DNA from: Eukaryota sp. GEM-RC1 | Lineage: Eukaryota | NCBI GenBank assembly: GCA_040285855.1 | Contig: JAUFOQ010000017.1 | Coordinates: 620,001-684,000, forward strand | Direction of reading: 5' to 3' | Length of the DNA stretch: 64,000 nucleotides | Position numbers and translations under genes: made by a program | The notes under the pieces: generated by a model | What the model was told of the DNA's origin: nothing | Databases searched by the model: none | Seen by the model: only the letters and a program-made list of their open reading frames with translations | Shown here: in pieces, positions 189 through 44,648 of the stretch | Numbering within the stretch: the stretch's first letter is position 1 | Layout: the number at the start of each line of letters is the position of its first letter

Positions 189-782
189 ATGTTCCCATCA
201 GATCGCCAAATGGTACATGATTTTCTTCATGGAGTCAAAGATAGAACGGACTACCTAAGAAACCGCTATCCTAGACCAGCTCAGGCAGCCATAAGACTGA
301 TAAGGAGACAATTTAACGACGAAGTTATGCCGCTTGAAGGAACTTACACCATCCTTGATGACCGAGGAAGACCCCATACTATCCTGATGGACCCTAGTAT
401 ACCGGAAACCATGATTCCTGTTAAAAAATGCTGGGAAAAGGTCCAGGAAGTATTGACAGGTCGAACTTTCGAAAAGTCGAATTCGGACAAAAGAATTCGC
501 TCATCAGATCACATCTCCTCTCAGCTTCCCGAAGCCATCCAGAGCACCACAACCCCGACTGATGAAGTGGTTATCCAACCCACAGCATTGAAATACCGAG
601 CTCGAGTGGAATATGAAGAAGAACTCGCTCGTAGAGCAAATGCAAATCCGAAGTCTAAAGTGAAAGAAATTTCCGAATTTTATCAATCACCTTCCGATCA
701 ATCAAACCCACCAACTGATGTCCACCAGCTTGGTCTCTCCTTGAGTGACCTTAGCACGACATCAACCTCCCCCTTCAACTGA
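189..782 (+). CDS. Probable N-terminal part of Gag, or an upstream ORF, of the gypsy element
   Basis: 197-aa ORF with the same composition as the element; it overlaps the gag-pol ORF in another frame near C-runs at about 770-797. Confidence 0.5.
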   Translation: MFPSDRQMVHDFLHGVKDRTDYLRNRYPRPAQAAIRLIRRQFNDEVMPLEGTYTILDDRGRPHTILMDPSIPETMIPVKKCWEKVQEVLTGRTFEKSNSDKRIRSSDHISSQLPEAIQSTTTPTDEVVIQPTALKYRARVEYEEELARRANANPKSKVKEISEFYQSPSDQSNPPTDVHQLGLSLSDLSTTSTSPFN

Positions 783-3700
783 CCTCCTTCCCCCCCTGGC
801 TCCGTCAGCATCCAATTCGGTTGTGGAACAACGTTCCCCAATGTCCCATAGTGTTGTCACTTTCCAACAGAAAGTCCCCCTCGACTCTATGAAGAACTCC
901 AAGCTTCAACCCAAGATGCTTTCGAGTTTGAAACCACACGACATCATTGAATTTGCTCAAGACTTCCTTCAATGGAGCGTGATGGACCCTAACCACAAAA
1001 CACCGGTAGGGGCTCCATTCGGATGGCCAAGACATTTTTTCGACTTCAGTCGAACTGCTGCAGCACACGCTGATCCTTCTTACATCCAACGCTTCGTAAA
1101 GTTCGACTTACAGACCCAGCTGTCTATGCAAAAGGAGTGGGATGGTAAGAACCCTCTCACCCTATGGTTAGCTCTCCTCAAGCGTACTCAGTTCCCAGAC
1201 GAGACCACTGCTTTAAATGAGCTGAACAAGATCAAGATGAAGTGGTCCATCACAGACCCTGAAGAGCGATGGAGTGATTTCATATCACGGTTGCACCGCG
1301 TTCTACAAAGAACCCAGGCCATAAAGCCGAAGAATAAGCCAATGACTGCGTTACCAGACAAAGCCATTGTTAAAGCTATTCTTTCGAACATAGGCATCGT
1401 ATCCATCTGGATCGAATGTTGGCCTCTCTACCAAGACTCTCCAGATATCCAAGGATTAATATCCGATGTCAAAGAACGTTATGACACTTGGTGCGAGAGA
1501 TGGAAATCTGCTCCAGCCAACGTGCAGAACGAACAACGAATTGCCGAGATAGCTCATCTTAGAGATACAGCTACTTGGGAAGACCTCCCCAAATCTTGGA
1601 CTTCTCGCCCCCTCATCCCGGTTCAGTCTAGTGAACCCGGTAGATCTCGTAGATCGGCATCCAGCTCCAAGCCACCCTCGAAGAAGCCTCGATCTGAAGA
1701 GAAAGACCCTGACGCCTGTAGATTTTGTGGCGAAAAGGGCCATTCCATCCTCCAATGTCCGGATCCCGAATGTAAACGTAGTGAGCTTCCTTTAGAGCAA
1801 CGTAAGGCCAAGAGTTCCACCTCAAAACCATCTCGTAGTCATAGCAAGAAACACTCGTCCCATAAAAAATCTAAATATTTCAATGCAAATTCAGCACATA
1901 TTAACAGCCTTGTAGATATAGCTGATAACATCACATCTAGTCAATCAAATCCCAGTTTGATTGAAACCAATCAATTCTTAAATCCATTGAGCAACATCAG
2001 TTCTGCCAATGGTAATACGAACTCACAAAGCCTGAATTCCATATTCAGCATAAGTAGTCAGAACCCACTCCCTCTTCTCAGCTGCAAACTGATGATTAAC
2101 GGAATTCCGGTTCAAGGTTTTTGGGACAGTGGAGCAACCATGTCCGTCATCACACAAGACCTGGCTACGAAGTGTAACATGACGCCCGTCAACAAAAATG
2201 TTCGCTTCACATCTGCAAACAATGTTGAGTCCCGGTCCTTGGGTAGCGCCCAGGGCATCTTGACCTTCGACACCAGTAGCATCGCGTACCTAACACATGT
2301 GGATAAGACGTTACCAATAATACCAGGATCCAACAAACTATTATTGGGAATCGATCTGATGAAACAGTTAGGACTACTGACCGAAGACGGACTAGTCATC
2401 CGGATTGACAAGGCCATCCTGGCCACCGTGAACGACGAGTCTGAGTTCGACTCACGTATCATACAACCTCCCCGTAGCCATTCCATTGATAACATTGTAG
2501 ACTTTAATAAACATGTATTCGATTCAGGTTGCACTATCAAACTAGATGATGATAACAGAGCTAAGAGCTTATTGAGCCTGCTTCAGGAGTTTTCCTCAAT
2601 ATTTTCGACAGCTCCTCACAAAGATGGCATCGATTGTCCTCCCATGGCGATCGACTTCTACAATGAAGAGTCCACTGTGAGACGGAAACCTCGACGGCTC
2701 AATCCAATGAAACAACGGATTGCCGAAGAGATTTTTGATGAACTTGTCCGACAGGACTTTGCTGAGTTAACAACTCCCAACGGACAGTTCAGTTCACCGG
2801 TAGTACTGGTGGTCTATCCCGATCAACGTAAGCCCCGCCTTACGGGAGACTTCAGTGGTTCCGATGGAATCAACGCATTGACCCGAGTTGTCGAACCGAA
2901 TCTTCCAAAGATCATCGACATCTTGGAATTTCTGAGCGAAGCTAACTTCATAGCGACCTTGGATCTTCCGAAAGCCTTCTGGCAATTGAACCTCGCAGAA
3001 AAGGACAGAGACAAGACAACTCTAGTAATCCCTGGCAAAGCCATCCGATTTAAAAGAGCTTGTTTTGGACTCAAGAACGTCCCTGCGATATTTCAAAATT
3101 TGATGTATGAAATATTCGACCATGAGGGCATATTCATTTACATCGATGACATCATCATAGTAGGCCGTACATTCGAAGAATTTATGAAACGAATACGATT
3201 CGTTCTGACTAAAGCATTAACACGTAGAGTCAACCTTGGCCTACCCAAATGCAATTTTGTGACAAAGAAACACCCACTAAAGATCTTGGGCAGTAAGTTC
3301 GTTAACAATACACGCAGTATTGACCCGTCGCGTATCACAGCTCTCCTAGAGTTGCCCGTACCAACAACAATCAAAGAAGTTCGTAGCTTCGTGGGTTCGA
3401 TTAACTACATAAAAGACTTTTATTCCAGGTGCGTCAGATCTTCTGGCTCCAATCATAAACTTAGTCAAGAACAACGCTCGTTCAGTAAAATGGACACCTC
3501 TCCATCAATCTAATTTCGAGACAATCAGAAAGAAGATCATCAATCACATGCCTCTCAGTCTTCCAGACAGGGATCAACGCGTGCTGATTAGCGCAGACGC
3601 CAGTGATATCGCTGTAGGTGGTGTCATTTGGCAAGAAATACCTCCTAACGCACAAGATGGAACTCCTTTGAACAACAGGAAAGTTATCCCACTAGCTTTC

Positions 3701-5671
3701 TACAGCAAACTCCTAACGGAATCTCAACAAAACTGGGCAACAATTCAGAAAGAGTTGTACGCTATCGTTCTGATCCTAACAGAATCCCCCATGTCATCAT
3801 TCCTCCTAAGCAGGGACCTAACCATCTTTACAGATCATAGAAACCTCGCTTTCCTCATCTCAGCACCCGAGAAAAACAGAGTAGTCAAGCGTTGGATACC
3901 CATCCTAAGCGAATTCCAATTCTCGGTGATACACACCATTGGAGAAGACAACCACTGGGCAGACATGTTATCCCGAAACATCGATACCTCTCAACCCGAA
4001 AACATAAACCTAGTCACATCTTGCCCCGAGCCGATGTTCTCTAGAGTCGATGGACTATGTCGTACTGATGACGATATGGAATATCAATCACTGACCTCCG
4101 AGTCAATCAACATGATTAGTGAACCATCAATTAGTGAACCATTAATCAACAAGTCAAAAATCTTTGACGCTTGGCTATCGAAGATACGCTCCACACAAGT
4201 AGAAGCCAAGAACAACAACGACGTACTGTTTCAGCATCCCACTGCTGTATACAACGACGAGCTCCAGCTATTCCTAAATAGCGATGGTAAGATCCTCATC
4301 CCTATGAGTCTTCGGAATACCACGATGAACCACATCCACGGTTTTCCTCACGCAGGCCACCCTAGCCTAAGAGTCAGCATTGATCGGCTAAACTCTAGTG
4401 ACTATTTCTGGCCTAAGATGGCCAAAGATATGAAGAAACACTGCATGCAATGTCCAGCTTGTCAAAAGACAGCTCCCCTTGCTAAACTCAAAATCAAACC
4501 ATCAGGTAACCTTTGGGCAGACAAACCATTTGCCAAAATGAATGCTGATACCATTGGACCTTTGCCGACAGACACCTCCGGGAACTGTCACCTTCTTGTA
4601 TTCATAGACTCGTTTACCCGTTATACAGTCTTATGTCCCTTGAAGGAGCTCAATGCCCAAGAAACCGCTCATGCACTAGTGTGTAATGTATGTGCAATCT
4701 TTGGTATACCCCATCTGATTCATAGCGATAATGGCAAGGAGTTTGCCAACCATGTCTTTAATGGCGTGTGTCAGGCTTTCGATATCGATACGGAGAAATC
4801 CATCCCCAGTTTTTCGCAAAGCAACGGATTAGTGGAACGTCGCCACAGAGACATCCTGCAGTCACTAAGAAAGATGCTTATCGATTTTAATGATTACGAC
4901 AACTGGTCCAAGTACATTCCAATTGTACAACTATTAGTTAACACAACTAAGAGTAGAGTGACAGGCTTCACCCCATACCAGCTCATGTTTGGATCAGCCA
5001 CCAGCCCTGGTAGCGACCCTAGCAAGATCCTAGCTTGTCTCTCGCAGGAAAGCCAATCAGAGGATTCCTTCCTGGCAGATTATCAATCTAAAATTCAAAG
5101 AATTTTGAAAAACCGGGAAGAGGCAGAGATCAACCAATCTTCCACTCAACCCGTGATAACTGCCGAACCAACCTCGTCGTCCCGGTACTCGAGTGGAGAC
5201 TTAGTCCTCAAGACTAACTCCAAAACTAAGAAGCTTCACGGCAAGCTCGAAGGTCCTTTCCTGGTCATCGACACGCCCACCGCAAGTTCTCTTACCTTAC
5301 AGAACATTATCACTGGACATCAGTTCAAATCAAGTGTTCACCAATGTAAGAAATACCTCACTGACAAACACCCGTCTGATGAGTTCCACAAAGCAGTCGC
5401 ATCCTGTGACTCTGAGGAAATGATCGTGATTAAGGTGCTATCCCAATCCGACTCACCCTCCGGACCTGTTTGTTCAGTCGTCTGGTTCGATGGTGACACC
5501 ACCGAGGTACCTTTGGATCAAATAAAGAATACGAAAGCCTATTCTGAGTTTATTAAATCTAATCCCTCATATAAGCCGTCTACTAGAAAGAAACGAAGTG
5601 TTCAGGGTAGTACCAGCCGTGCCTCTCCACCTGCCAAGAGGACCAGGTCCTCGAGAAAGGGGAAAAAGTAG
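745..5671 (+). CDS. Gag-Pol polyprotein (zinc knuckle, aspartic protease, RT, RNase H, integrase, chromodomain-like C-terminus); one frameshift at about 3420
   Basis: CRFCGEKGHSILQC (CCHC); FWDSGA (protease); LDLPKAFWQ, FGLKNVP and YIDD (RT); DASD, ELYAI, TDH and ADMLSR (RNase H); HGFPHAGH...CPAC, NADTIG, HSDNG and VERRH (integrase); EGPF; KVLS...VVWFDG..TEVP (chromo-like). Split between ORFs 745-3513 and 3548-5671 by an extra T in a T-run. Confidence 0.95.
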
Positions 5672-10250: not shown

Positions 10251-10707
10251 TTTTAATCTGTTTTTATTTTGATATTTACTGTTATATTTTTCCTCTTCAA
10301 ACTAATTTTTTCTAAATACAGTGTATCGAAAGAATGAAATTACACAATACTTAATTATGCATATTTTAATTCTAGGTTTGCCTTTGCGACACAGCTGTGC
10401 AACCGTTACACTGCTTGTTATTTCGCAACAATATTCAAGATGATTGATCTAGATTCTTCATTATATCAGTTTTCGGCAACACAACAAATTCATCAAGGAC
10501 ATTCAGTACTATTGCAACCATAAAAGTACAAACCGTTCATAAAAAATGTATCAAATATACAACACAAGTGAGGATTAAGAGACTGAAAGGGCATACTCTG
10601 AATCTAAGAATTCTGCAGACTCAAAGTTCAAATGAGCATTTTTCTCTGCAGAACTGGTAGAAATCAGATATAGAATCATCAATTTTGGTAAATTAGTTAC
10701 TTTTTCT

Positions 10708-11403
10708 CACCTTTTGAGTTGTAATCGTTTCATTACTTATAGAACTTGTATTCATGATGCTGTTAGAGATCAAATTCATGCCATGTGTAAGTCCTACAAA
10801 ATCGAATCTTTCGTTGAGCCACTGTTGAGGTCACTGGAAATCAATAATTCAAAAAATAGTGATTCTGATAAGACTTTTGGTAAAAGAAGGGCTGATATCA
10901 TAGTTCCATCAGTCAACGATGAACTAACCGTTGTTGATGTGATTACTGTGGATGTTTGCAAAAAAAGTGCTTTCAAGGATGCTAAAAATGAAGTTTCTCC
11001 ACTGAATTCTTCAGAACAATACAAGAGAAACAAATATGATGAACCACTGACTGCTCTCAAACATATTAGACATGTTGAGTACAAATTATGTCCTTTTGCA
11101 ATTTCAATTTATGGCCGACTTGGTGGAGATGCTCTTTGTTTTCTCTCCGATTTTGAGAAAGTGGTTAAAAAAGAATGAACAAGAAATTTGATTTCAAATT
11201 TTGGTTGAATCGTATTGTTTTTACAAAATTTAAAACAATTCCTATCATGATTTCAAAAGCTCTATTAGCTCTCAGTGTTTTTTATGAAGAAAAAGCTGAT
11301 GTGAGTTTTAATGGCAATGATTGTTGCTTTAATGATATTGAGTTCTAGTATTTGTGTTTATTTTAGTGTTTTTGTTCTATAAAAGAATTTCTGTAAAAAA
11401 AAA
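10708..11403 (+). mobile_element. 5'-truncated RLE-type (CRE/NeSL-like) non-LTR retrotransposon with poly(A) tail
   Basis: HLLSC...RTCIHDAVRD, EP, RADIIV, VDVITVD, KRNKY and PFAISIYGRLG form a CCHC/RHD-like + restriction-like endonuclease domain; A-run at 11395-11403. Confidence 0.85.
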
Positions 11404-11804
11404 GAATCTGCAATTTATGTTTGAATTGGTAATGACCTATACAACATCGTACTTACAAGGATCAGTAGGACAGAAAACTTATGGTTCAAATTTTGACATA
11501 CCATTCAATGCACATTATTCAACTCAAAAATGCACTTTCATGAGTAGGTGTTTCGCACTGAGAACTTATGTTTGGAAAGAAGTCAAGCATTACTCAATTA
11601 AAAGACAATCCGGTTGGTAAAAACATAAGCAGTAGAGAGAACAAGTAATTGATTGTAAAGATTCTGAAATCAGTTTTGATCTATTTGAATATCCTGAAAG
11701 AAATACTGGTAGACACTTTCAAAACAAGTTGCAAAAGCATCTTTCAATCTCAAATGGTCACCCATATAGTTGTTATCTCATGCATTTTTGATTACACGGC
11801 TTGT

Positions 11805-12120
11805 TGGAGTCATAGCTGTCAAATACCATCAACACGTGTCCTACAATACAAATAGACAATAAGACAATAATACAATACTAGTAATACGTGTGTTGAAGCT
11901 TTTCTGTGTTCTTGTAATTGATTGTTTATTACTTGTATTTTTGTGTTTTCGTGTGTAGTTCAATTTATGCCAATGATCTAAGTTGAACTGTGGGAATACT
12001 GATGCTTCAGTTACTACTTTATTGCAGTGTTCCAAAGAGGAAGAATCACTTCCTTTATCTTGGACATTGTACGCTGGTCACAATTAGTCTCACTCACTGG
12101 TACTAATTTTAATGTGACTA
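11805..12120. repeat. Dispersed ~300-bp repeat, copy A (copy B at about 61093-61360)
   Basis: Alignable blocks with copy B, two of which are inverted relative to the rest. Confidence 0.75.
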
Positions 12121-13775: not shown

Positions 13776-14209
13776 GCGTGATAATTGTGGTTTGTATTTA
13801 TAAAGTCAATTATTGTTTGTTTTTATTTCTACACTTCACGGACGTGTGCAAATGAAAAACTGAAACTCATGTACATTGACACTCTATATAGCGTATGTCC
13901 ATAAAACGACTGTAACCCAGTTGAATGCATATTAATCTATTTCTTCAAGATTAATTATGGTTTTAATTGCACCGAAATGACTGTCCCTGGTTCTCTTGTA
14001 TGACAATCTTTGAGCTACTTGACTTCAAGAGCAACACAGATGTTAAGTCTTTTCTAGAATGTGTTGCACAATAACCAAACACCATAGTATTTTTTTTGAG
14101 AGTACTACAATGGTTCAGAATGTACATGTACTGTACTAGTTCTAGTAAATCTGGAAACATCGGAAAAGAAAAGAAAATCTCTCCTTGATCTTTTCTGTCG
14201 AACTGGACA

Positions 14210-15146
14210 ATGTCACAGCACCAACGTTTCACTCATTTGCAACAACTTGGTAAAGGAGCATACGGTACTGTTTATAAAGGGACGGACACAAAAACACACA
14301 AAGTTGTGGCTTTGAAAGTTATCAACATCGATAATGATGATGAAGGCATCCCTTCATGTGCTATTCGCGAAATCTCCTTATTGAAAGACCTTGCTCACCC
14401 TAACATTGTTAAACTCGAAGAAGTTCTCCACTCTGATGTTCATCTCTATCTTGTCTTTGGAGTATATTGATACAGATTTACACAAGTTTCTTGAATTCAA
14501 CGACCTCGTTCTGGATATGCGTATTATCAAATCACTAATGCAACAACTTCTTAGGGGAATACAGACAGTTCACTCCAACAAAATCCTCCACCGGTATGAC
14601 TTCTCCATCTTTCTCATATCAGTGACCTTAAACTCCCCAATCTTCTCATCAAATTAGATAACAAAGAACCGCAACTTAAAATTGCAGATTTTGGTCTGGC
14701 CAGAGCATTTGGTATTCCCATTAAGAGCTACAGTCATGAAGTTGTCACTCTGTGGTATAGAAGCCCAGAATTGTTACTTGGCTCAACACGATATGGCCCA
14801 AGCATTGATATGTGGTCAATTGGTTGTATTTTTGCAGAAATTACCAACGGCAGAGCCCTTTTTCCAGGAAGAACTGTTGATCAACAGATCCAACTTATCT
14901 TTGATGGACTAGGGACACCAAGCCCGTCGATATGGCCTTCTATCGTCAATCTTCCAAGATATGACGAAAAGATTCCCCTTCTCAAGTGGAAAACCTTTAT
15001 CTGAATTGTGCCCACGTCTAGACGATACAGGGTTGGATCTGCTGAGTCGGTTGCTGACATTTGATCCTTCTCAACGTATTACGGCAGATGAAGCCCTTCT
15101 ACATCCATTTTTGTACAATAAATATAGATCTTCAATTGATTGTTAA
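14210..15146 (+). CDS. Cyclin-dependent kinase (PSCAIRE; CDK1/2/5 family); 29-nt intron at 14594-14622; single-base indels at about 14459 and 14978
   Basis: [36 protein letters not shown] (after splicing), [37 protein letters not shown]. Confidence 0.95.
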
Positions 15147-15204
15147 GAAGATGTACTTCACGAATTATGAGTAAATACTGCGTCTAAACACCTGTCTGAT
15201 TCAT

Positions 15205-15330
15205 AGACATCACTTCACTGACTGCTAGTTGAAAATGTGATAATTGACTGAAGGTTGTGATGTACTGGAAATCAACACTAAATGCTGCCTACTGGTTAAG
15301 GTAGACTAAAAAGTTTGAAAAACTAAGTTC
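15205..15330 (-). ncRNA. Candidate Fanzor omegaRNA (scaffold plus flank-derived guide)
   Basis: Lies immediately 3' of the Fanzor stop. Small stem GTCTAC/GTAGGC. Inferred from known Fanzor/TnpB organisation; boundaries not established. Confidence 0.3.
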
Positions 15331-17337
15331 CTGACTGATCGATCAAAACGTCCACATTTTCTTCACTCTCATCTTCTGCAACGACGTCCTTCTCCTCACT
15401 CTCCTCAGTCTCAAGACATTGTACACAACTAATCTCAGAAGTCATTTGTTCAGATTGGCTTCTGCTGAGAATAGTTGGCCTGGGTAGCCCAGCTAACTTT
15501 GCCTTCATGATTTCCATAATGTTGATGCCTGAATTGAAATCCCTGACCCACATAGTAGTACAATGCTGACACTTGAGCAAACCACACGGTTTCACTTCAG
15601 CACGTTTCTCAAATTCCTCTTCAGCTTTTCTCCACTCTTCTTGGAAATCCATACTGTGTTTCTTACAGTACCACTTCAGCCATTTCTTTTCCGTTTCTTC
15701 TTTCGATGGATGTTCGGATCTGGACATGTGATTCCATGATTGTGGGTATTTTCACCAAATATTCCGCCCTTAGCACACTTAGAGCAACACTTACTAGTTC
15801 GGTACTCATCCACTAGAAAAATCTTGAACCCTGCTTTTCTAAATAGCTTCCTCATTGCTTTTCCTTTAATTGTCGGAATAAAACCTTTAGAGCGAAAAGC
15901 AGAGTCGTTCCAATCACCATAACCGATGAGAACTTTGTTTGGTTCACCAAATTTTTTCTTGAAACGGTTGATCATTTGGTCTTCTCCCCGTTTCTTGTTG
16001 GAGTACAACTGAAGTTGTCTCTTTCTAAACCAAGTAGTACTATACAAATTCCAAGTTCTCAAGTTGAATAATTCTTTTTGATAGATGTACTCACAAAACT
16101 CTTCACGAACACAAGATTGTTTTTGTCCTTGATTGACAGCAGCAGAGAAGAGATTCATTGCATCTTTACCAGTTACATCAAGACAAGTAGTTACGTTCTC
16201 CTTGAGTATAAACAAACTTCTTAAACTTGTCTTTTTCTCTCAGCTTAACATCTTCAGAGATTTGAACTTCAGGTTTGGGTGTTCTGTGGTTTCTTCTGTT
16301 CTTAATTACACGTCCTGATGGCTTTCGTGGTCTTGTGGTTGCATTAATTGTAATTCCTTCTTCTTTTAATTCATTAGCAGACTTTTCTGTGACAGCAACA
16401 ATTGGGGCATACTTATTTGGATCAATGCCCACAAGAGTTCTATCCTTTAGATTTAATTCCTCAATATCGGCATCTGTTAAATCATCCAGATACTTTTCTT
16501 CAGTATGCAATTGAATTGTAGAATATTTTTTTCCTACTAAATCGTTTCGTTGTAATACAAGTGAAACTGAAACACCATCAGTTTGGAGTGAGTTTTTAAA
16601 GGAGTAATTTGCCTTAGTAGATTTGAAGCATCTAGCATCTCTGTTAAGTAGGGAATCCCAAATTTCTGTTCCGTATTGGACAGAACGACTTGTGTAAAAT
16701 GTCTTTGTTTGCTTTTGGAAAATTTTCTCTCCAGCAATCTTGGATTCTAAATCGTGAGCTTCAGACATGGCTTCTTTTTGAAAAAATTACCTAAAACAAC
16801 TTTAGTGTCGACTCTAAAATGCTGTGGAATGACAGTGTCTGTTAAAGGAAGACAATTTGGAATACTGCAAGGATTTCCTCTTTCATCAGGTTCAGCTCTA
16901 ACAAGTTTTGTTATAAAAATTGCATGAGACAACAACTTCATTGGATGGACCTTTTGAGAATAGAATAAGTTTTTATCTTTGACAAATAATGACGTAAAAT
17001 GACTTTCCAGATATTCTTTAAAATTTCTACAAATATTTCTTTCAGGATTTTCAAATAAGTCAAAATTGATTTCAGAAATTTTACAATCAATAATATTTTC
17101 TCTCAACAGTTTAAACTGGGTCAACAATTCTTGTTTTTCAATCGCATGGTCTTTTAACTCTGTTATTCTCGACTTTTTATTCAAACAAATGTTCATGGCA
17201 CGGAAAATGTATTCATGAAAGTGCATTTTCAAATGAGTAGCATAATTTGCACGTACATGTCTTGAATGGTATTTCAAAATTTGATCCATCAAAGTGTAGG
17301 AGGGAGCTAGGAAATCGAAATCATCTTCAAATTGAAG
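15323..17337 (-). CDS. Fanzor1-type (eukaryotic TnpB) RNA-guided nuclease, REC-RuvC-zinc-finger part; in four frame segments
   Basis: QILKY...NYATHLKMHF; SLQTDGVSVSLV; RuvC-I LVGIDPNK; FRKRQLQLYSNKKRGEDQMINRFKKKFG; GYGDW; rearranged RuvC-II FLVDEYRTSKCCSKC; GLLKCQHCTTMWVRDFNSGINI (zinc finger + RuvC-III); GLPRPTILSR tail. Confidence 0.92.
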
Positions 17338-19335
17338 CAGGGGTCGGGAAAAAATATTTCTATTGCAATATTTAAATATTTTTCATGAAAAATATTTATT
17401 TTTTGTACACGTAGATAAAAAATATTTATTTTAATCTTTTGCAATACTGTATTTATTGCAATATTTATTTTTTGGAGTAAAAATAAATGATTTGTTGAGA
17501 TGAAGAAAATGATACATAACAGAAGATGTGAAGTTCATTTCAACTATTCTCTTCTTGCTATGTCTCTCAAGCCTAAGGATACGGCCAAATTCTACTTTCG
17601 GAAGGTTACTCCAACCCCAAACAACTGCCCTGAACACAAAGAAGCTTGGCAATGTCGTCTTTGTCCCAACATGATCCCCCTGTATATTCAGCCAAGAACT
17701 GGATACTCCAATTTTATGCCACACGTACACAAATGCCACCCAAACTTCAACGAAGAAATGATCGCCGCCAAAAACAACGCAACCATCAGTCGATTCTTAA
17801 CACCTGTTTTGCCAGACAAGCCGCACAACATTTTCCGATGGCTGGAATGGTGTATTGAGAATCAAATGGCATTTACATTTGTTCAAGATCCAGTGATTCA
17901 AAAAAACTGCAATCTTGACCCAATTGATGTTAAGACATTGGTGAAGTACATGAGACTCTTGTACACCGAAGTTTGTGCTAAGGTAGCCCAGTTGTTGCCT
18001 GAGGAATTTGGACTGATGTTTGACGGATGGAAGCACCCAACAGGAACCACAGAGTTCGTTGGGATGTTTGCGTGCTTTCCGCAGAAGAGTAGACCAGTTT
18101 TACTATCTCTGTTTCCGTTCGAACTGGACGAGGTTTATGACGAGAGCAGTCCATTTAAATCATCCAACGTTGTATTTGGTGCCGAACAATACAAAGAAAA
18201 TATCGCTATTGTGTTGTCAGCGTATGACAAAACTGTAGATGACTTACTGTTTCTCGTTGGAGACAGCTGTGCTACCAACACTCGTCTTGCAGACATACTG
18301 TGTATACCTTTGATTGGTTGTGCTTCGCATAGATTTGCAAATGAAGTCAAGAAATTTTCTGGTGATTTAGATCCCATTTTGAAAGACATTGATGATCTTT
18401 TCACTCAATTGAGACATATCAAAAACACTCTCGTTCTGAAAACCAACACTTCCTTGAGACCTTTGAGGCGGAATTCTACAAGATGGTGGTCTACCATTGC
18501 TATGTTGAAGAGATTTTTTCAATACATTGATAGAAAGTCCTTTGATCTCTTTGACGAAAGTGTCACTCAATTTGTCCCTTCTTTTTTTGAACAGCAACGT
18601 TTGAAAACATTGATGAAACAATATGAAACTTTTCATGTGCCCACGCTTTATCTTCAGCGGGAAAGCATTCCTTTACATCAAATTCACGCTTCACTGGAAC
18701 TTTTTCATCAAAGATTTCCCACCATGAATCAATACACAAGCTATCCTAGCAGTAAACAACACAGCCCTGTGTTTGAATCTGCTATCATCAAAATACTAAA
18801 TGGTCATGAAGACAGACTCTCAACAGCTGAACAAACCAGTGTTGCGTCCTTTCTTAAAGAGGATGTGGAAGAAACCGATATTGAAGAAGAGGATGGCGGC
18901 AATGACGAAAGTGAAGAGTCAGATGTTACCAATTTCGAAGGTGCACTTGATTCGATTGGCCAACCCGACAAGCCAACCAGTAAGTACATTGATTTGAAGT
19001 GGATTCCAGGTACTTCTAATGTATTAGAACGATTGTTTAGTAGGGCTAAGCATACATTAGGAGATTACCGATGTTCTCTGTCAGATAGCAGTTTAGAACA
19101 GCAATTGTATCTGTTGTACAACAGAGATCTTTGGAACGAAGACGATGTAAGAAAAATTATTTCTAAAAGACCCTAAAAGAGGAAAATTTTGATACTGTTA
19201 TATATAAAATATTTAAATATTTATTGCAATTTTCTACTTATTGCAATATTTATTTTTTGAGTATATTTTGAAAAAATATTTATTGGGCAATAAAAAAATA
19301 CATTATTTTATTTAAATATTTTTTCCCGACCCCTG
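17338..19335 (+). mobile_element. Autonomous hAT DNA transposon (1,998 bp) inserted into the Fanzor gene
   Basis: Perfect 22-bp TIRs CAGGGGTCGGGAAAAAATATTT; perfect 8-bp TSD AATTGAAG (17330-17337, 19336-19343); AT-rich subterminal repeats. Confidence 0.96.
17500..19176 (+). CDS. hAT transposase (BED-like zinc finger, DDE, dimerization domain); start may be the ATG at 17560
   Basis: WQCRLC...SNFMPHVHKCH, FDGW, VGDS, GCASH, TRWWS, SNVLERLFS; uninterrupted 558-aa ORF. Confidence 0.93.
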   Translation: MKKMIHNRRCEVHFNYSLLAMSLKPKDTAKFYFRKVTPTPNNCPEHKEAWQCRLCPNMIPLYIQPRTGYSNFMPHVHKCHPNFNEEMIAAKNNATISRFLTPVLPDKPHNIFRWLEWCIENQMAFTFVQDPVIQKNCNLDPIDVKTLVKYMRLLYTEVCAKVAQLLPEEFGLMFDGWKHPTGTTEFVGMFACFPQKSRPVLLSLFPFELDEVYDESSPFKSSNVVFGAEQYKENIAIVLSAYDKTVDDLLFLVGDSCATNTRLADILCIPLIGCASHRFANEVKKFSGDLDPILKDIDDLFTQLRHIKNTLVLKTNTSLRPLRRNSTRWWSTIAMLKRFFQYIDRKSFDLFDESVTQFVPSFFEQQRLKTLMKQYETFHVPTLYLQRESIPLHQIHASLELFHQRFPTMNQYTSYPSSKQHSPVFESAIIKILNGHEDRLSTAEQTSVASFLKEDVEETDIEEEDGGNDESEESDVTNFEGALDSIGQPDKPTSKYIDLKWIPGTSNVLERLFSRAKHTLGDYRCSLSDSSLEQQLYLLYNRDLWNEDDVRKIISKRP

Positions 19336-19640
19336 AATTGAAGTCTCCTTGTAGACAATTGCATTTCTTTGTGAATCCGATGCAAAATTGGCCAGTACCA
19401 GTTCAAACATAAATGGGACATTCTACATCTCATATCAACCAGCTCAGTAGAGACAATTCCTCTTTTAGACTTCGTTGTAGAGTCCTTAGTGACAGAGTCA
19501 GCCATTTCTTCCTCTTCATCCTCGCTTTTTTCGTAGAGTTCATGCATTTTTTCATCACACTCGTGTTGATTGGAATACAGTAACAGTTTCTCTCCGTTTT
19601 GACAAACAGACCACCATAAAGACTCTAGAACCTTGTTTTT
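19336..19640 (-). CDS. Middle segment of the exonuclease-Fanzor gene, 5' of the hAT insertion
   Basis: Open frame KVLESLWWSVC...MHELYEK...STRRLQF, which joins in frame to EDDFDFLAPSYTLMDQILKY once the hAT element and one TSD are removed. Confidence 0.8.
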
Positions 19641-20953
19641 TCTTGAAGAATGTCCAAGTTGGGTAATTCGTGAGGTTTTTCATTTATTTGACGATCATAT
19701 TCATCAATAAAGAATAACTTTAAGAGCATTCTACCTCTGGTATTGATTCTACTAAAATTCTTTCCAATTCTGCGAAATTCATTAAGATCAGATTGTTGAT
19801 TTTGGGGATTGGGATCTTTTAGAATTTGACGAAGATCACATTTGACAGATTTAACAGCAGGAAGAAACAACATTGTTTGCAGTTTTTTATCTAAGAAGAA
19901 GTCTACTAAGTGACGACATAATTCAACATCATTAATACAATAACAAGCAAGAGACGTACGGTCCTCATCTGAACCATTCCACAAACGTTCAATTTCTTTT
20001 AACTTGGCTAAAGTAGTTTGATTTCTTAGCACTTCATAACCTTGACTCTTGTACTTAGTTGTAAGACGAAGTTTCTCATCTTCAGATAAAAGATCCAATT
20101 TTTGAACTCGTGAACCTTCAAACAGATATGAAACAACATTTTCCAATGATCTACCTCCGGGAAATGTATAAGTAGAACGTAAGAGTTGATACAAATCGAG
20201 AGACCAAATAGAAGCAAGATTTGACTTCTTAGCCCATCTTTGAAAAAACCACGGACAACAAACAGAACCTTCACCCAGTTTAATTAAGAAATTGATTTCC
20301 ACATCAAGCAGTTGACATCGACGAATAATAAACGGCAAATCAAATGAATTTAAATTGTAACCACAAATGAGTTTTGGCTTTTCCAATTTCAGGAGATGAA
20401 TAAATTCAACCAACATTTCCTTTTCATTTTCAAAATGAAGAACTTCAGCATTGAGATCATCAGTAAGAACTGGCTTAGAAGTCAACAAGAAACTCCTTGA
20501 CTCTTGTAAAGGATGTTCAAAAGTATTTACAAGTTGGATTCCAATCTGGATGATTGAATCATTTTCAAAGTCAGGTTTCAACTCATCTGGTTCTTCAGAC
20601 AATTCAGAGATTGGTTTGGCTTCTGAATCGAGTTCATCGTCTGCAGCATCTTTTTTCTCCGAAGTTTTAGGGAGTTTTACAGTATGCAATTCTTTTGCCG
20701 AAAGAGATTCAATGTCCAGAAAAAAATATAACTCCTCAGCTTCTAGAAACTGCAAAGGAGATTCGGACAGTTCAGTTTTCTTCTTATGAGCAGGTTCTGT
20801 ACCAAGACTTGAAAGACTCAATCTTGTACTGAGGGGATCAGAATTGGGATTAGATTGTGGACCTGGATTGGATTCCACATTACCATCAGACGTAAGATCA
20901 ATTTTAAACTGCAGTCTGCAATCAAAACTGACAGAAATTTGGAAAAACGACAC
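19625..20953 (-). CDS. 2A-like peptide + PolB-type 3'-5' (DEDDy) exonuclease fused to the Fanzor1 N-terminus
   Basis: DLTSDGNVESNPGP; ExoI FLDIES; IIQIG; FENEKEMLVEF; ExoII GYNLNSFDLPFI; LDLYQ...SLENV; ExoIII YCINDV. Then, in the same frame, SVKCDLRQILK...SRINTRGRMLLKLFFIDEYD...LP, which resembles Fanzor1 N-termini. Confidence 0.85.
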   Translation of the reverse strand: MSFFQISVSFDCRLQFKIDLTSDGNVESNPGPQSNPNSDPLSTRLSLSSLGTEPAHKKKTELSESPLQFLEAEELYFFLDIESLSAKELHTVKLPKTSEKKDAADDELDSEAKPISELSEEPDELKPDFENDSIIQIGIQLVNTFEHPLQESRSFLLTSKPVLTDDLNAEVLHFENEKEMLVEFIHLLKLEKPKLICGYNLNSFDLPFIIRRCQLLDVEINFLIKLGEGSVCCPWFFQRWAKKSNLASIWSLDLYQLLRSTYTFPGGRSLENVVSYLFEGSRVQKLDLLSEDEKLRLTTKYKSQGYEVLRNQTTLAKLKEIERLWNGSDEDRTSLACYCINDVELCRHLVDFFLDKKLQTMLFLPAVKSVKCDLRQILKDPNPQNQQSDLNEFRRIGKNFSRINTRGRMLLKLFFIDEYDRQINEKPHELPNLDILQEKTRF

Positions 20954-21823
20954 TTCAACAAAATTTCACCACCACCACTTTCAAAACCACCACCACCACC
21001 ACCGATCCACTGAATTTAACAAGGAGGCAAGTTTGGGGGCTGGAAAGCAGTGTGTTGCCCTGGTGGTTCTATCACCATGCTGGGCATGTAAAAATAATAG
21101 GCCTGACTGCCAAAAACAACACACATACTCCCATAAAAAACCCTCGACTTCGAAAAAATAAAAAATTTGGATTGAATTGGATCAATGACCAAAAATGCCT
21201 TCCTTGGGGTTTTGCTTGAACAATGATGCCTTTGAATAGCATATTGCCGCCCGGTCCCACCCAGGCTGTATGGATACAAGATATCTACAGAAGTTGCTTC
21301 TGTAGAATTCCACCTGATTTGATAGGATGACTTTCCCACCAAAAACAGGCCTCTCATAGCCGTCGAATCAATGAACATCGACACGTGAGCAAAAAAATGG
21401 ACCATTTTGTGGGTTGTTGGTATTTATAGATGTGTCTACAGTGTCATGTCAGTCAAGACATTTATTGACGATTGTCTTCATTTTTCACTTTTCAGTGTCC
21501 TCTACATGGACAATTGTCATAAATTTGTTCCTTTCAGTTGTTCTTTAAACAATTCACATCTTTATTCTCTTCACACTTTCCTTCTCAAGATGATGTATAA
21601 AGATTCGTATTGGTTTTCTACACACACTTTAACCAAAATCACGCTACAAATGTCCCACTTTCTTTCTTTTTCTGTTCTTATCCTTTGTTTTGATATAAAT
21701 AAAAGTATAATTGGGCGCGGACACAATTTGGTCTCTTGTGATGTTCGTTTAAAAAGTCAATTGTTCTTCATTGCTCAACTTCTAGTAAAAGAATTGGTTC
21801 CTTTAAACACTCTACGAATCCAT

Positions 21824-22624
21824 ATGACAAGTAAACGATCAAAGTACACACATGAAGAAGATTGTCTCTTGTTACGGTATCTTTATCAAGACTTAAAAGG
21901 CGCTGGAGGTTTTGATTATGACCTTCAACTAGGAGGCAATGCCTACTGGAAAGACCTCACTAAATCTTTACATGGACAAGGGATGCTCATAACTCATTCG
22001 TGGCAGTCCATCCGTACACACTTCACCAAAATCTTAAAACCATACTTTGACAAGGGCAAGTTTCCCCCAATACATCTCCAACATCTGCTCCTCAATCTCT
22101 ACAAAAGAAAAAGAAAGAACCCCTGAAACTTCCATCTTCTCGTTCTACACCTGTTTCAACTAGTACCACCCCTACTTCTACCACCATTGACACCTCAGAT
22201 TTGACTACCTCTCAGCAACTTGAATGTGATATTATCAGCAATTTGACAGGTGCTTTCCAACCAAGAAACGCCAGCTCTGATCAATTGTCTGATCAAAGTA
22301 GTTCTTCCCCAAGTTCCTCTCCAACTCCTCCTTCCTTTGCCCTACCACCGTTCCCTGATACTTGTAGCTCTCCTTTAACGCCAGATGCCTCTCCACCAGG
22401 AGCCTCTACTCTAAATGAGCATCCCAATGTCTTCTCGTCGTCCTCTCCTGAAAAGAACGTAGTAATAGTGAGACAGAAGAACCGGACATTCAGAATCAGC
22501 TACATCGAGTACTTTCAGAGTATACAACACCTAGCTATCTGAAGAGACTGTCTTCTAAAGTTGATTCAGTTGAGAAGGTACGGAAACTTCAACGTCAATT
22601 AGATGAGTTTCTAGAATCAGTTTA
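21824..22624 (+). CDS. Rap1/TERF2IP-type Myb-domain protein with S/T/P-rich tail; frameshifts at about 22110 and 22500; end approximate
   Basis: RSKYTHEEDCLLLRYL...GGNAYWKDL...THSWQSIRTHFTKIL matches the Rap1 Myb pattern (FTxxDD...GNxxWK...HSWQSxxxRYxKxL). Confidence 0.7.
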
Positions 22625-22859
22625 GATTGATTAATCGACAGTGTGTTTTATCACTGCTATCTAGTTCTTGTATTGAGTACAATACTCATGTTATTGTTAT
22701 GTTTAGTGAGTTGTAGATCTTTAGCTACTACTAGTAGTTGAAGTTTCTTATGTGTCTTTTTACTTTTATATTTTTTGTCTTTTCGCTTGAGTTGACGTTG
22801 ATACTGTTTGTTCTTGTATTTTAGTTAGTCATTTTTTAGAGATGTGTATGAAGTATAGT

Positions 22860-23551
22860 TGGGGATGGACTTCACTCCACTCGTAGAAATTATAGAACTC
22901 CAACTCGACTTCACTCCAAACAATAAAAATCAGAAGTGAACTTCACTCCAACTCAAGTCACTTGTAGACTTCACTTCACACAAGCTTGTTAAATTTTTGT
23001 CTTTATATATAATTCCTCTCATTTGACGCTTTTGGCACTTCTTCCAGGTATACACAACGGTCACTCAATGTGTTACGATTCGCACTAAAACACACACTAT
23101 TAGATATTTACTGTGATGATGTCATCGCATTGAGTCTTTTATATATTTATGAAAACTTCAGTCGGATGGTTACTAAAGAGAGTTTCAAAAGTAATTTCAA
23201 AAACTGTGTTCAGAATTTGGTGAGAAGTTTAAACAGGTCTTCATGGACGATAGTTTTAACTTTTTGATCTTTTAAGCGAACGCATAGATAAATATATTTC
23301 CTTTCTGGTCAATGATAACTACAAATAGTGTAACTCCCCTTAATATAGGTGTTTTTTGTGAATTATGTACAATACTTACGTAGGAATGCTAATGAAATAC
23401 AATGTAGCAAGTTTCACTCCAACTCGACTTACTCGTAAAATTTTGACAGAACTCCAACTCGACTCCAACTCGTAGAAATTTGCAGTGAAGTGGAGTGAAG
23501 TGGAGTTTGGAGTCTTGGAGTAGAACTCGAGTGGAGTTTTGCCCAACCCTA
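22860..23551. mobile_element. hAT-type MITE
   Basis: Imperfect TIRs TGGGGATGGAC..ACTCCACTCG / TAGGGTTGGGC..ACTCCACTCG; 8-bp TSD AGTATAGT (22852-22859, 23552-23559); subterminal ACTCCAACTCG repeats. Confidence 0.85.
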
Positions 23552-23898
23552 AGTATAGTTAATGTGATTTTAAATCATTTAGTTAAGGTCAGCTTTCAGT
23601 CTGGTTTACCCGAGTCTATCAGCTCAAACCAATTTGTACATATGTTTGCTGCATACCGATGTAGTGTGGAACGGATTGATGTACATCCCAGAACGTCTTC
23701 CATGTCTAGATCGATGGTGTTTGTTGTTACAGTCAAGTCATTCCTAAAACGAGGAGTATCAAATTTAATAGTAACATAGGGGTTTCTGGTCATTGAACAC
23801 AACAGTAGCAGTGATTTGCTTTATTTGGTCAAAAGACAATCCGTACATTACTAGGTTCGATCCAATATAGCCAACAGACATTTTGACGTCTACAGTAT

Positions 23899-27612: not shown

Positions 27613-27686
27613 TGCTCTGTACAGGGGTCGAACCTGTGACCTTGGCGTTATTAGCACCACGCTCTAACCAACTGAGCTAACAGAGC
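27613..27686 (-). tRNA. tRNA-Ile (anticodon AAT)
   Basis: GCTCTGTTAGCTCAGTTGGTTAGAGCGTGGTGCTAATAACGCCAAGGTCACAGGTTCGACCCCTGTACAGAGCA folds as a canonical cloverleaf. Confidence 0.96.
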
Positions 27687-36739: not shown

Positions 36740-38119
36740 TGTTTTCGAGCTCTTCTGCATCCTTGACAAAGTGACAGTCATGTTCAACCGAATGGTTGGT
36801 CCAGCTAGACCTTGTGATTCTCTTTCAGTGTTACCATCATGTTCGTGCGGCACTTTTGCCGGAACTATTGGCATTACAGTGACCTTCCCGTAAGTCAAAT
36901 TATGACTAGTTCAGCACACAGGCGTTATCGGTGTGAAACAGTTCATTATAGTTGTTCTTTGTGGATTATACTCATGAAACGAGTTCCAGTCCAATAAACG
37001 TTGTATTTAGAGCTTGATTTGACACATCTGAGTAATAATGAACACTAAATTTAAATTTAGTCGATCAAGGACACAGATCGTTTCAGTTTACGGAGTTAGT
37101 TACCTTGGGCAATAATGAAATCAGGTATTACATCAAATCATTTCCAAATTGAAATTGAACCTGTATAAATGGAGATTTCTAATCTTTGAGCAACTATGAA
37201 GCCTACTCACCGTTTTTGTCAATAGTAAGGAACTGGAATAAAAGTATCGTTTGTATACAAATGTTGATAAAGTGATTAACAACACCCCCTAACACATGCA
37301 ATAATTGAAATTGAACATTCAAATTTTGATGTGCAATGTATTTCTACACTTTGAAAACATTATTTGTTTGTACCAGTATGTACATACATCAAATGTGCAA
37401 CATCAGCAATTTAAAAACTAATCTTATTGTTGATCGTCTGTCGTCCATCAATCAAAGCATTCAAGGCTTGAATTTCAAGCGAGTTGAACGTCAACACTGG
37501 AGGTTTTCTTGTGAATCATCAGTGGAACAGAAAATGATTATGGTGTAACGAATCATGGTCTCACTAAGTTCCAACTTATCATTTGATCTAGAATTGTATT
37601 ATTGTTCTTTTGATAGACTCTATCTGATTTGATCATTTGGGTATATGACATACAAATCAAAACAAGTAGGTTGGAGTAGAGGGACTCAATCATAGCAACA
37701 ATGAATGAATTGTAATGGTTTTTTTATATAATTGCAATATATTTTTCGGTATCCCTGCTACAGTGTACATACATCTATCATCAATATCCCAAAATCCAGA
37801 TTGCCTAAAATTGTAATGGTTGACAGCTGTATGTGGGCGCAAGTGTTGTCGTGGTTCTAGTTGAAATGACTCTAGTTGCTGACAGCTGTACAAGATATCA
37901 TACAGTACCTGTTACAACGCAGGAGATTCCAAACCCCTACATCATTTTCATATTAATGACTGAATGAAAACAGACTGTGATACGATGTTAACAACAGTGG
38001 TTTCTAGTTTCGTATAGCTATCCATCCTTTACAATATACACCCGAAAAATGTGGAAGAAGTTGTATAATAGTAGGACAGAAAAGAGAGATGAACACCAAA
38101 TTGGTTTCCAAAAATAATT

Positions 38120-38192
38120 CTCCTTCGGTGGGGCTCGAACCCACGGTCCCCGGGTTAGAAATCCGATGCGATTCCAACTTCGCCACGAAGGA
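38120..38192 (-). tRNA. tRNA-Arg (anticodon TCT)
   Basis: TCCTTCG acceptor stem, GCGA/TCGC D-stem with A20, loop TTTCTAA, GTGGG-TTCGAGC-CCCAC T-arm; A31-C39 mismatch. Confidence 0.88.
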
Positions 38193-38565
38193 ATTCTGCA
38201 AAGAAAGTCAGATACTGGTGGGCATTTTGATAGCATTGAAGATAACATTTTCACTATTTTTCTGGCAATAAATCTCCTTTTCATGCGCTCAAAAGATTCT
38301 CCTTCTGGGGTCAATGGGACTCTGGTAAAGTTTTTCTCCGCAAAGATGGCTTGGGCGGACATAGAAGAGCTAAGCACAGTACAAAACATCAGTGTCAGCA
38401 CGACCGATGCTTTAAGGTTTGTACAACAATGTACCAACTAATTCCAGACTTTGTACAGTCGTATCAGACTGACAAGCCATGTGCAAATAAAATGCTTGGA
38501 CGTACAGGAGGACCTGATTTATTGAAGGATAAATCGAATAGGTCAGATGGACCGAAATAGTACTA

Positions 38566-43117: not shown

Positions 43118-44648
43118 GTGATACCATCGAGTCTGTATCAAGGTTCAAAAATTTCGCTAATTTTAAAGTGTGAGTATCATCTACATGCCTCTGCATCAGT
43201 AGCTGGAGGCGAATTTGTCATCACATCTTTTGCGGAGCATAGTTGCAGACGTCTCACAACTACCACTACTGTCAGAGCCAAGACAGCTGGAAGGTCTCAA
43301 ATCGATGTCGCCAGTTCTGCTCCTCTCTCACCTACTTCTCTTTCTATTAGGGCCAAGGAGGCATTAGGCGTTAGTATGACTCCAAGTAAAGCATTACGAG
43401 CTGTCAGAGAGCAAGAGAGTCTGCTATTTGGAAACGCCGATGAATCTTATGGCTTACTTGAACACTATATCTCTGCATTGCGGGAATCCGATTCTTCTCA
43501 CTGTGTTCATCTTGAACACAAGAAGAACTCTCAAGGTCTCAACGAGTTTGACCGAATTTTCTGGGCATACGGTCCTTCTATTGAAGGTTTCCAAGCATTG
43601 TAGGGATTTTATTACTGTAGATGCTTGTCACATCAAAACGATCTATAAAGGGCATATGATGATAGCTGTGTCCTTGGATGCTGAGGGGCAAATCTTTCCT
43701 GTTGCATTCTCCATCGTTGGCGGTGAAAACTTGGCAAATTGGCGCTGGTTCCTTGGACTTCTGAAGAATGTTGTGGGAACTCGTACGCTAACTATCGTAT
43801 CTGACAGAAATCCGGGACTTCAGACAGCACTGGAAGAGCTCTTTGGCCATTGTAATGTCGCTTATTGGTTGGAGCACCTCAAAACAAATCTTAAGAACAA
43901 CGCAGGAGCACGAATTTGCCCTCATCTCAGAAAAGCTGCTGAATGTACGACTGAACAAGAACTAGCGGCTGTTTTACAGGAGATGAAAGAAATCTTCCCT
44001 AAAGGGTTTAGCTATCTTGATAAGATCGATAAGAGTAAGTGGACAGATCTCTATTTTTTAGGAAGAAGGTACGGTCACTATACATCTAACATCTCTGAAA
44101 GTCTAAACGCTTGGATCAACAGTGAGAGAAGGATGCCGGTAGTTAAAAGTATGGAATGGATTAGAAGAAAACTGATGAAATGGTTTTACGAAAGAAAGAA
44201 GAAAGCAAATGCGATGAAAGGATTGCTTGTTGATAGCTTGGAAGCTATTGTAGCCAAAATCGACGACAAGGCCAGAAGACTCGAAGTGCTGGCTAGTAGT
44301 GATGTGATATTTGAGGTACTTAGCACCACAACAAGAATTGTGAAGCTGGAAGAACAATATTGCAGTTGTGGCCAGTGGAAGAGGTCTGGAATTGTTTGTG
44401 TTCATGTGCTTGCTGTGTTGTTGCACCAAGGATTTGATTTCGTGAACTTTTGCGAGCCCTTCTTTTTGACGGAAAAATACTGCGCAATCTATGAGAGAAG
44501 TCTGATGCCAGTTCCTTGTCGTGAGGAATGGTCAATCGAGGACCTAGAACAGCCCGTTTTGCTTGGTTTACAACCACCTCAAGGAAACAAGCAATCAGGT
44601 AGAGGTCGGAGACAAGTAAATCGACGAAGGAGATGGAGTGAAAGATAG
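43118..44648 (+). CDS. Mutator/MuDR (MULE) transposase with SWIM zinc finger; frameshift at about 43590
   Basis: ITVDACHIKTIYKG, DAEGQIFPVAF, NWRWFL, IVSDR, TSNISESLN, CSCGQW..GIVCVH. The CxxH motif reads WLEH. Confidence 0.9.

Follow-up and report, generated by a model that had tools for sequence, protein, structure and literature searches.

The 64,000-nucleotide stretch of Eukaryota sp. GEM-RC1 analysed here (GenBank contig JAUFOQ010000017.1, positions 620,001 to 684,000; hereafter the window, numbered from its first letter) contained on its minus strand a damaged copy of a gene joining a family-B DNA polymerase (PolB)-type 3'-5' exonuclease to a Fanzor1, a nuclease of the obligate mobile element-guided activity (OMEGA) group. 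The host is described, in the available text on it, as Skoliomonas sp., a free-living metamonad.

An exonuclease and a Fanzor1 in one reading frame

The minus-strand open reading frame (ORF) at 19625-20965 (446 codons, stop to stop) carried the motifs FLDIES (ExoI), GYNLNSFD (ExoII) and YCIND (ExoIII), and matched the Pfam family DNA_pol_B_exo1 (PF03104) with an E-value of 1.8e-18. No Pfam match to a polymerase domain (PF00136; palm, fingers and thumb) was obtained after the exonuclease, either in this ORF or in the fused gene models presented below, in agreement with a preliminary description made from the DNA letters. The ORF was identical (100%) over 96% of its length to gene model GEMRC1_011931 of the same organism.

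Residues 367-426 of this ORF aligned to positions 21-74 of a Fanzor1 profile at 17.6 bits, compared with 2.3 bits for the best of 200 shuffled sequences. The profile had been built from the 94 stand-alone Fanzor1-like proteins (570-830 amino acids, aa) of a 183-protein comparison set. The Fanzor therefore starts within the exonuclease ORF, ahead of any break, as the preliminary description had proposed. Five pieces of the window were hit by the profile in the expected order (E 1e-4 to 1e-42), and those downstream of the ORF displayed GIDP (RuvC-I), GYGDW, VDEYRTSKCC (RuvC-II), two CxxC pairs forming a C4 zinc finger, and RDFNSGINI (RuvC-III), the zinc finger preceding the RD motif; all the nuclease motifs listed earlier were thus recovered.

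Uninterrupted fused gene models were found in two Skoliomonas-type metamonads, GEM-RC1 itself and Eukaryota sp. TZLM3-RCL, the evidence on homologs coming throughout from public automatic gene models (cluster look-ups and an exhaustive search). Exonuclease and RuvC core lay within a single ORF in P0016 of GEM-RC1 (GEMRC1_003502, 1,182 aa) and in P0024 (1,473 aa), P0171 (RCL1_003595, 1,479 aa) and P0173 (1,222 aa) of TZLM3-RCL, and Pfam detected both the exonuclease and the TNB domain in P0016, P0024 and P0171. The complete set of exonuclease and RuvC residues was present in RCL1_003595 and RCL1_003437 (about 1,475 aa). The two parts were therefore not separate genes in these other copies, a case that the preliminary description had named as fatal to the fusion. 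A chimeric assembly at the junction, named there as well, is ruled out because the same domain order occurred in two species.

Long relatives of the second half of the ORF were missing from the 387 candidates of a word-indexed search; since the exhaustive search later recovered them, this blank reflected a limit of sensitivity. The exonuclease profile matched 27 of the 183 comparison proteins, and an exonuclease domain was carried by none of the 94 stand-alone Fanzors. Eight of the 150 exhaustive-search matches listed (960 further ones had E<=0.001) matched the exonuclease profile, and the six that were traced all came from the two protists, more distant fusions being possible among the remainder. 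In the two protists, dispersed copies of the family occupied many contigs. Pattern scans elsewhere, which cannot show absence, gave nothing or one ordinary PolB stretch in viral contigs, four PolB loci in metagenomes, none with a Fanzor, and no member of the family in prokaryote genomes.

Families, folds and known relatives

The exonucleases sorted into six families, A (including the window copy), B, C, D, RCL-1 and RCL-2, and in five of them the start of a Fanzor followed the exonuclease within one ORF. All five catalytic residues, in the pattern ExoI DxE, ExoII Nx3-4FD and ExoIII Yx3D, were kept in family A and RCL-1 (P0008, P0022, P0171, P0024, P0173). RCL-2 (P0145) kept ExoI and ExoII, its model stopping ahead of ExoIII. 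The idea of an ancestral protein with both catalytic sets intact held in full for the RCL family and, for the window's own family, as regards the exonuclease set. As for the consistency of the models, all 13 other family-B models aligned to P0016 at 94-99% identity with gaps of at most one residue (P0010 spanning residues 1-458 and P0009 residues 415-1119), and for the RCL models (3 of 3) identity to P0171 was 93%, no gap exceeding nine residues. P0010 and P0001 (GEMRC1_007297 and GEMRC1_007298) were neighbours, a family-B exonuclease model beside a Fanzor model. The P0001 region was 98% like the window in its C-terminal part and only about 52-70% in its N-terminal part, and is possibly a nested or recombinant element.

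Two quick trees were obtained. With RuvC-II sequences (69 rows, 125 columns), the ten protist rows fell on a single branch (Shimodaira-Hasegawa-like approximate likelihood ratio test, SH-aLRT, 98), within which A and RCL-1 stood apart from B and P0004/P0183, two proteins for which fusion is not demonstrated. The exonuclease tree (21 rows, including five PolB outgroups) separated the families with intact catalytic residues from those without (SH-aLRT 92), with a warning of long branches. These topologies are compatible with a single fusion and a single loss of catalysis but do not prove them.

A 2A-like StopGo motif, which had not been mentioned in the preliminary description, preceded the exonuclease. 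In the form D/N-V/I-ExNPGP it occupied an equivalent position in P0022, a sister copy of the window gene (DVESNPGP), in RCL-1 (DVEANPGP) and in family D (DIESNPGP). The sequence D(V/I)ExNPGP was exact in P0022, P0171, P0024, P0105, P0180 and P0181; P0173 read DVEANLGP, and the window had N for the first D. The motif was not found in the models of families B and C, whose starts fall downstream. In family D (P0105, P0179, P0180, P0181), a Ulp1/C48 protease domain was inserted between the 2A motif and a catalytically dead exonuclease.

The fold was predicted with AlphaFold2 for residues 277-1447 of P0171 from an 80-row alignment (predicted local distance difference test, pLDDT, 76; predicted template modelling score, pTM, 0.70). 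A 108-row alignment was set aside, its exonuclease-only rows being misplaced (17% identity), and a single-sequence fold of P0016 (pLDDT 32) was not used. Foldseek returned Fanzor1 chains as the top seven hits, followed by Pol delta and other PolBs; among viral structures, Fanzors and polymerases were matched as separate proteins. With VIA-align, model residues 305-1171 superposed on residues 18-633 of SpuFz1 (Z 23.7; root-mean-square deviation 3.2 A; 561 of 590 SpuFz1 residues), and model residues 6-290 on PolB exonucleases (Z 11.4-12.7), with about ten residues from the end of the ExoIII helix to the first WED strand. The structural comparison suggested beforehand thus recovered both folds.

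From the first WED strand onward, the entire fold resembled Fanzor1 (SpuFz1 8GKH/9CEZ, PpFz1 9CF1, GtFz1 9CER; Z 20-24), with the expanded Fz1-type REC/WED architecture rather than the compact one of Fz2 and TnpB. D1043 (RuvC-I) and D1420 (RuvC-III) of P0171 both faced a D in every stand-alone row (59 of 59). RuvC-II was rearranged as in Fanzor1, with GYGDW at the canonical site and the catalytic E shifted to six residues before the zinc finger, in a column likewise invariant in 59 of 59 rows. On sequence and modelled fold, the locus protein is a Fanzor1, with RNA-guided cutting as its predicted activity. Unlike Fanzor1, it has a PolB exonuclease at its N-terminus as well as a 2A-like motif, its Fanzor part is longer (about 900 aa in P0171, 600-700 for most Fz1), and about 75 extra residues separate its two CxxC pairs.

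The exonuclease shared the order of ExoI to ExoIII and the RNase H-like proofreading fold with family-B polymerases (Pol delta, Pol epsilon, archaeal PolB, T4/RB69 gp43; PF03104). It differed from these enzymes in having no polymerase domain, a Fanzor taking the place of palm, fingers and thumb, and so the protein is not a whole family-B DNA polymerase. Human Pol delta was the best single-sequence hit (E 1.8e-9), archaeal PolB the best profile hit (7e-11) and yeast Pol delta came at 2e-9. Scores of Pol delta and archaeal PolB were close, and neither NCBIfam nor PHROGs resolved the donor lineage. ESM Atlas gave no usable match for P0171 and generic PolB exonuclease clusters for the exonuclease domain.

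The exonuclease-Fanzor1 architecture was not found in print in the literature searched. The word exonuclease is absent from the main text of the Fanzor, TnpB and OMEGA works consulted (Saito 2023, Jiang 2023 and Yoon 2023; Bao and Jurka 2013; the Fz1 structure paper of 2024; the classification of TnpB; the OMEGA review of 2026), and likewise from the supplements to three of these as far as they are searchable. The broader literature, mostly outside subscription journals and in its available text, yielded only engineered fusions or unrelated work, and the same kind of search returned nothing on Fanzor in metamonads.

A possible role in homing

The fusion bears on how Fanzors serve their elements in eukaryotes. 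The reading favoured here, at about even odds (0.5), is that of a multi-copy Skoliomonas-type gene family, with 2A-like motif, PolB-type exonuclease and Fanzor1 in one frame, whose product would cut under RNA guidance, trim a 3' tail with its tethered exonuclease and leave host recombination to copy the element into the break. In Fanzor1 biochemistry the target-adjacent motif (TAM) lies on the flank opposite to the guide-giving flank past the element's 3' end. For SpuFz1, the available text reports a guide taken from the 3' flank, a non-target strand cut after base 16-17 and a target strand cut after base 20-21, leaving 5' overhangs (PMC10432273), and in the available text of a further source OMEGA nucleases serve as homing enzymes at empty sites (PMC13565253).

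An intact protein is predicted to cut the empty site specified by its RNA. With the guide on the 3' flank, the TAM on the other and the cut after base 16-17, the TAM-side end would bear a 16-17-nt 3' tail, mismatched to the donor junction, whose removal would be needed before synthesis could enter the element. The exonuclease, fixed about ten residues ahead of the WED strand, could trim this tail in cis, and the element would then be copied into the break through host recombination. The 2A motif may free a short leader and leave the nuclease with a defined Pro start. Exonuclease activity would be an aid and not a requirement for spread, since three of the six families are catalytically dead and have multiplied nevertheless; these presumably rely on proofreading by host polymerases.

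Clearing mismatched 3' tails of this kind is a task that proofreading exonucleases perform. A parallel, which we infer, is homing of the T4 td intron, where in the available text the polymerase 3'-5' exonuclease and DexA influence homing and the nuclease cleaves at a distance of 23-25 nt from where the intron inserts (PMC2988022, PMC12153337). There too, a homing nuclease (I-TevI) cuts away from the insertion site and a PolB-type exonuclease (that of gp43) is needed for efficiency; that exonuclease works in trans and the site is recognised by protein, whereas in the protist protein the exonuclease is fused and RNA guidance is predicted. In yeast, according to the available text, an invading 3' end can lose up to 40 nt to Pol delta proofreading (PMC10868807). 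Engineered Cas9-TREX2 and IscB-T5 exonuclease, as far as their available descriptions go, likewise tether an exonuclease to an RNA-guided nuclease; the protist fusion differs in being natural, PolB-derived and old enough for six families in two species, three of which have lost catalysis. A D(V/I)ExNPGP motif close to the N-terminus of a mobile-element protein recalls the 2A-like StopGo sequences of non-LTR (long terminal repeat) retrotransposons, as far as the available text describes them (bioRxiv 10.64898/2026.06.17.732966; PMC12338488), although the protist fusion has neither reverse transcriptase nor APE domain and skipping is putative.

Several observations weigh against trimming as the route to homing. 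Most or all of the exonuclease catalytic residues are gone from families B, C and D, which have retained the domain, and family B comprises 13 gene models at 94-99% identity despite its dead exonuclease. This spread of three families with a dead domain is the strongest of these points and would favour a non-catalytic binding role. All homologs are automatic gene models, any single one of which may hide introns. The P0171 model does not place the exonuclease site relative to DNA, and its pLDDT around ExoIII is about 60. In the annealing assay of PMC10868807 itself, the proofreading mutant is reported in the available text to be without effect. No omegaRNA was located at the window copy, its own 5' and 3' zones shared no terminal (inverted) repeat or target duplication, and it contained no recognised transposase; excision and homing are for this reason putative.

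In the reading that draws most on these points, the exonuclease domain is mainly non-catalytic, binding a displaced or frayed strand or docking the nuclease on host replication proteins, with catalysis a leftover in some lineages. Inactive exonuclease folds play such binding and docking roles in Pol alpha and Pol zeta. Catalytic residues were lost in three of the six families, apparently once on the tree above, and the dead families kept the whole domain, with invariant non-catalytic motifs such as W..RW and YxFxGGRxLxNV, and still multiplied. This reading, a serious one to which we give distinctly less weight than to trimming, has against it the persistence of all five residues in families A and RCL-1, only about 33% identical and from two species; selection on exonuclease activity is likely because they were kept at that divergence. 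More doubtful is a purely destructive role, in which cut ends are degraded to block re-ligation and to eliminate the target or leave it mutated (rival elements, viral or prey DNA), with no part in copying of the element. Engineered nuclease-exonuclease fusions do give more and larger deletions according to the available text of PMC13599430, and 3'-5' trimming would lengthen the 5' overhangs of a SpuFz1-type cut rather than turn them into invading ends. The guide is the element's own flank, however, so the natural target would be the empty site, where destructive repair removes the substrate of homing, and no spacer collection was seen.

The preliminary description had offered two jobs for the exonuclease, trimming the omegaRNA 3' end or processing cut DNA ends, and the latter is favoured here. 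PolB exonucleases act on DNA, and trimming of the omegaRNA is for that reason the less likely of the two; as an account of the domain it appears improbable, even though the omegaRNA carries its guide at the 3' end, where a defined terminus is required. Every structural and sequence match was to a DNA-polymerase proofreading domain and none to an RNase, and stand-alone Fanzor1s mature their RNA with no exonuclease domain (0 of 94). It is very unlikely that the fusion is an assembly or gene-calling artefact, or a pair of neighbouring genes taken for one. In each of the three family-A models the frame is left at a shared A6 run past the Fanzor start, as such an artefact might produce, but this break lies about 75 codons into the Fanzor, so the join precedes it, and five families and two species carry that join without a break.

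Active and inactivated families form a natural matched pair on whether end trimming drives homing, and the unbroken RCL1_003595 and RCL1_003437 are directly expressible. For genome editing the protein would be a natural counterpart of engineered repair-altering exonuclease fusions, although not a compact one (1,200-1,360 aa), and the 2A motif, if active, would add an OMEGA system, and metamonads, to the range of StopGo-like recoding. The deSUMOylase-type Ulp1 module of family D could alter repair at the break. A wider and tentative proposal is a class of transposase-free eukaryotic homing elements, in which one polyprotein, 2A-released from a structured leader RNA, would cut an RNA-specified site and resect its own 3' tail, spreading by programmed gene conversion alone, and in which swappable front modules (exonuclease, Ulp1 protease) would rewire host repair at the break; on this proposal the protein would be the first RNA-guided nuclease of a cut-and-trim kind from nature.

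State of the window copy and its surroundings

The window copy is a pseudogene, interrupted by a hAT transposon and several frame changes (Table 1). Frameshift-aware alignment matched residues 282-1474 of P0171 to the window (1,059 residues, 41% identity, no stops), with -1 shifts near 19650, 16802 and 15689 and one deletion near 16186.

Table 1. Parts of the exonuclease-Fanzor1 copy and associated features in the window
Feature	Position	Strand	Basis
PolB-type 3'-5' exonuclease domain	19900..20740	minus	PF03104 E 1.8e-18; human Pol delta E 1.8e-9; fold Z about 12
Exonuclease catalytic residues (approximate)	ExoI D/E 20716/20710; ExoII D 20341; ExoIII Y/D 19942/19930	minus	catalytic alignment columns
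Fanzor1 start, first WED strand and first REC helix	19688..19867	minus	17.6 bits; homologous model stretch aligns with SpuFz1 from residue 18
Fanzor REC region and acidic linker, past the -1 break in the 19625-19679 overlap	19344..19650	minus	frameshift-aware alignment, open frame
Fanzor REC/WED region, continuing the frame of 19344-19650 when the hAT is left out	16802..17337	minus	profile E 5.7e-25
Fanzor WED and RuvC-I (GIDP, D 16423-16421), ending at the deletion near 16186	16187..16801	minus	frameshift-aware alignment, Fanzor1 profile, comparison with P0001
RuvC-II: GYGDW, shifted catalytic E 15807-15805, first CxxC	15690..16185	minus	profile E 1e-42; PF07282 weak
Second CxxC, RuvC-III (D 15541-15539), acidic tail, stop	15323..15688	minus	profile E 1.4e-16; reaches residue 1474 of 1479 of P0171
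Intact nested hAT transposon, 22-bp perfect terminal inverted repeats, 561-codon ORF 17491-19176	17338..19335	plus	weak Pfam hAT dimerisation and BED finger matches
2A-like StopGo motif, NVESNPGP	20858..20899	minus	sole ExNPGP match in six frames of 64 kb
Candidate AUG-bearing first exon, in-frame stop in the window	20989..21087	minus	tblastn of P0022 residues 1-33, 97% identity
Stretch upstream of the ORF with strong multi-hairpin folding, candidate leader RNA or element end	21215..21360	minus	RNA fold z -5.3
Interval expected to hold omegaRNA and element end	15147..15322	minus	nothing located; z +0.3 to +0.9

As the preliminary description had anticipated, leaving out 17338-19343 (the hAT and one copy of its 8-bp target duplication, 17330-17337 and 19336-19343) joined two segments into a single open frame of 308 codons. 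With its perfect terminal repeats, target duplication and complete ORF, the hAT at 17338-19335 is probably a recent insertion. The three one-base junctions at A-runs noticed earlier corresponded to the -1 shifts, each with homopolymer runs in its overlap (A6 at 19650; A5 and T6 at 16802; A4 at 15689). Inspection of the 19640 junction by eye showed a canonical -1 slippery heptamer to be out of register there. The deletion noted earlier at about 16180 was confirmed near 16186, but it was not small, at least about 56 nt missing relative to the 98%-identical model P0001 and 40-47 residues relative to P0016 and P0171.

Homopolymer error is a plausible cause of the -1 shifts, since these assemblies were built from Nanopore reads corrected with Illumina data, according to the available text of their source (bioRxiv 10.1101/2023.05.03.539051), and the family-B gene models break at differing positions. 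Pointing away from it, three of three family-A models lose the frame at the identical A6 run, and the hAT ORF crosses eight runs of five or more with its frame intact. The hAT insertion and the deletion at 16186 make the window copy a pseudogene irrespective of the reads.

No in-frame AUG was present upstream of the 2A-like motif in the window copy; the candidate first exon at 20989-21087 is used in the gene model of the sister copy P0022. Further upstream, none of 200 shuffles of 21215-21360 was as stable as its sense strand (z -5.3), the other strand gave z -1.8, and two of 80 random windows fell below -3. This stretch comprised five hairpins, including a perfect 10-bp stem, and is a candidate translation leader, ribozyme or element end. 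It had no Rfam match at E<=10 and no tRNA, and a degenerate hammerhead considered by eye was unsupported. At the other end, neither a folding signal nor an Rfam match for an omegaRNA was found in 15150-15480 of the window copy. The element was flanked by a Rap1 Myb-domain gene (21389-22126, plus strand; PF08914) and by a gene resembling, by eye, a cyclin-dependent kinase (14189-15146, plus strand), with less than 180 nt of room for its 3' end before the latter.

A second remnant of the same Fanzor lay at 10541-11809 on the plus strand (70-77% nucleotide identity), with no hAT and no detectable exonuclease part. It was split at 10676/11403 by an insert whose ORF 10636-11178 resembled, by eye, a non-LTR restriction-like endonuclease (no Pfam match). 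Other mobile elements of the window included a Gypsy-type LTR retrotransposon pol at 745-5671 on the plus strand (protease, reverse transcriptase, RNase H, integrase; one frame change near 3413-3513) and a Mutator-like element transposase with a SWIM finger at 43118-44648 on the plus strand, in two frames, possibly a family of trans-acting transposases. Imperfect inverted arms (36, 31 and 17 nt) of CACTCCAACTC-like units, about 600 nt apart at 22848-23563, possibly represent a miniature inverted-repeat transposable element. Two tRNA genes were located on the minus strand, tRNA-Ile(AAT) at 27613-27686 and tRNA-Arg(TCT) at 38119-38193.

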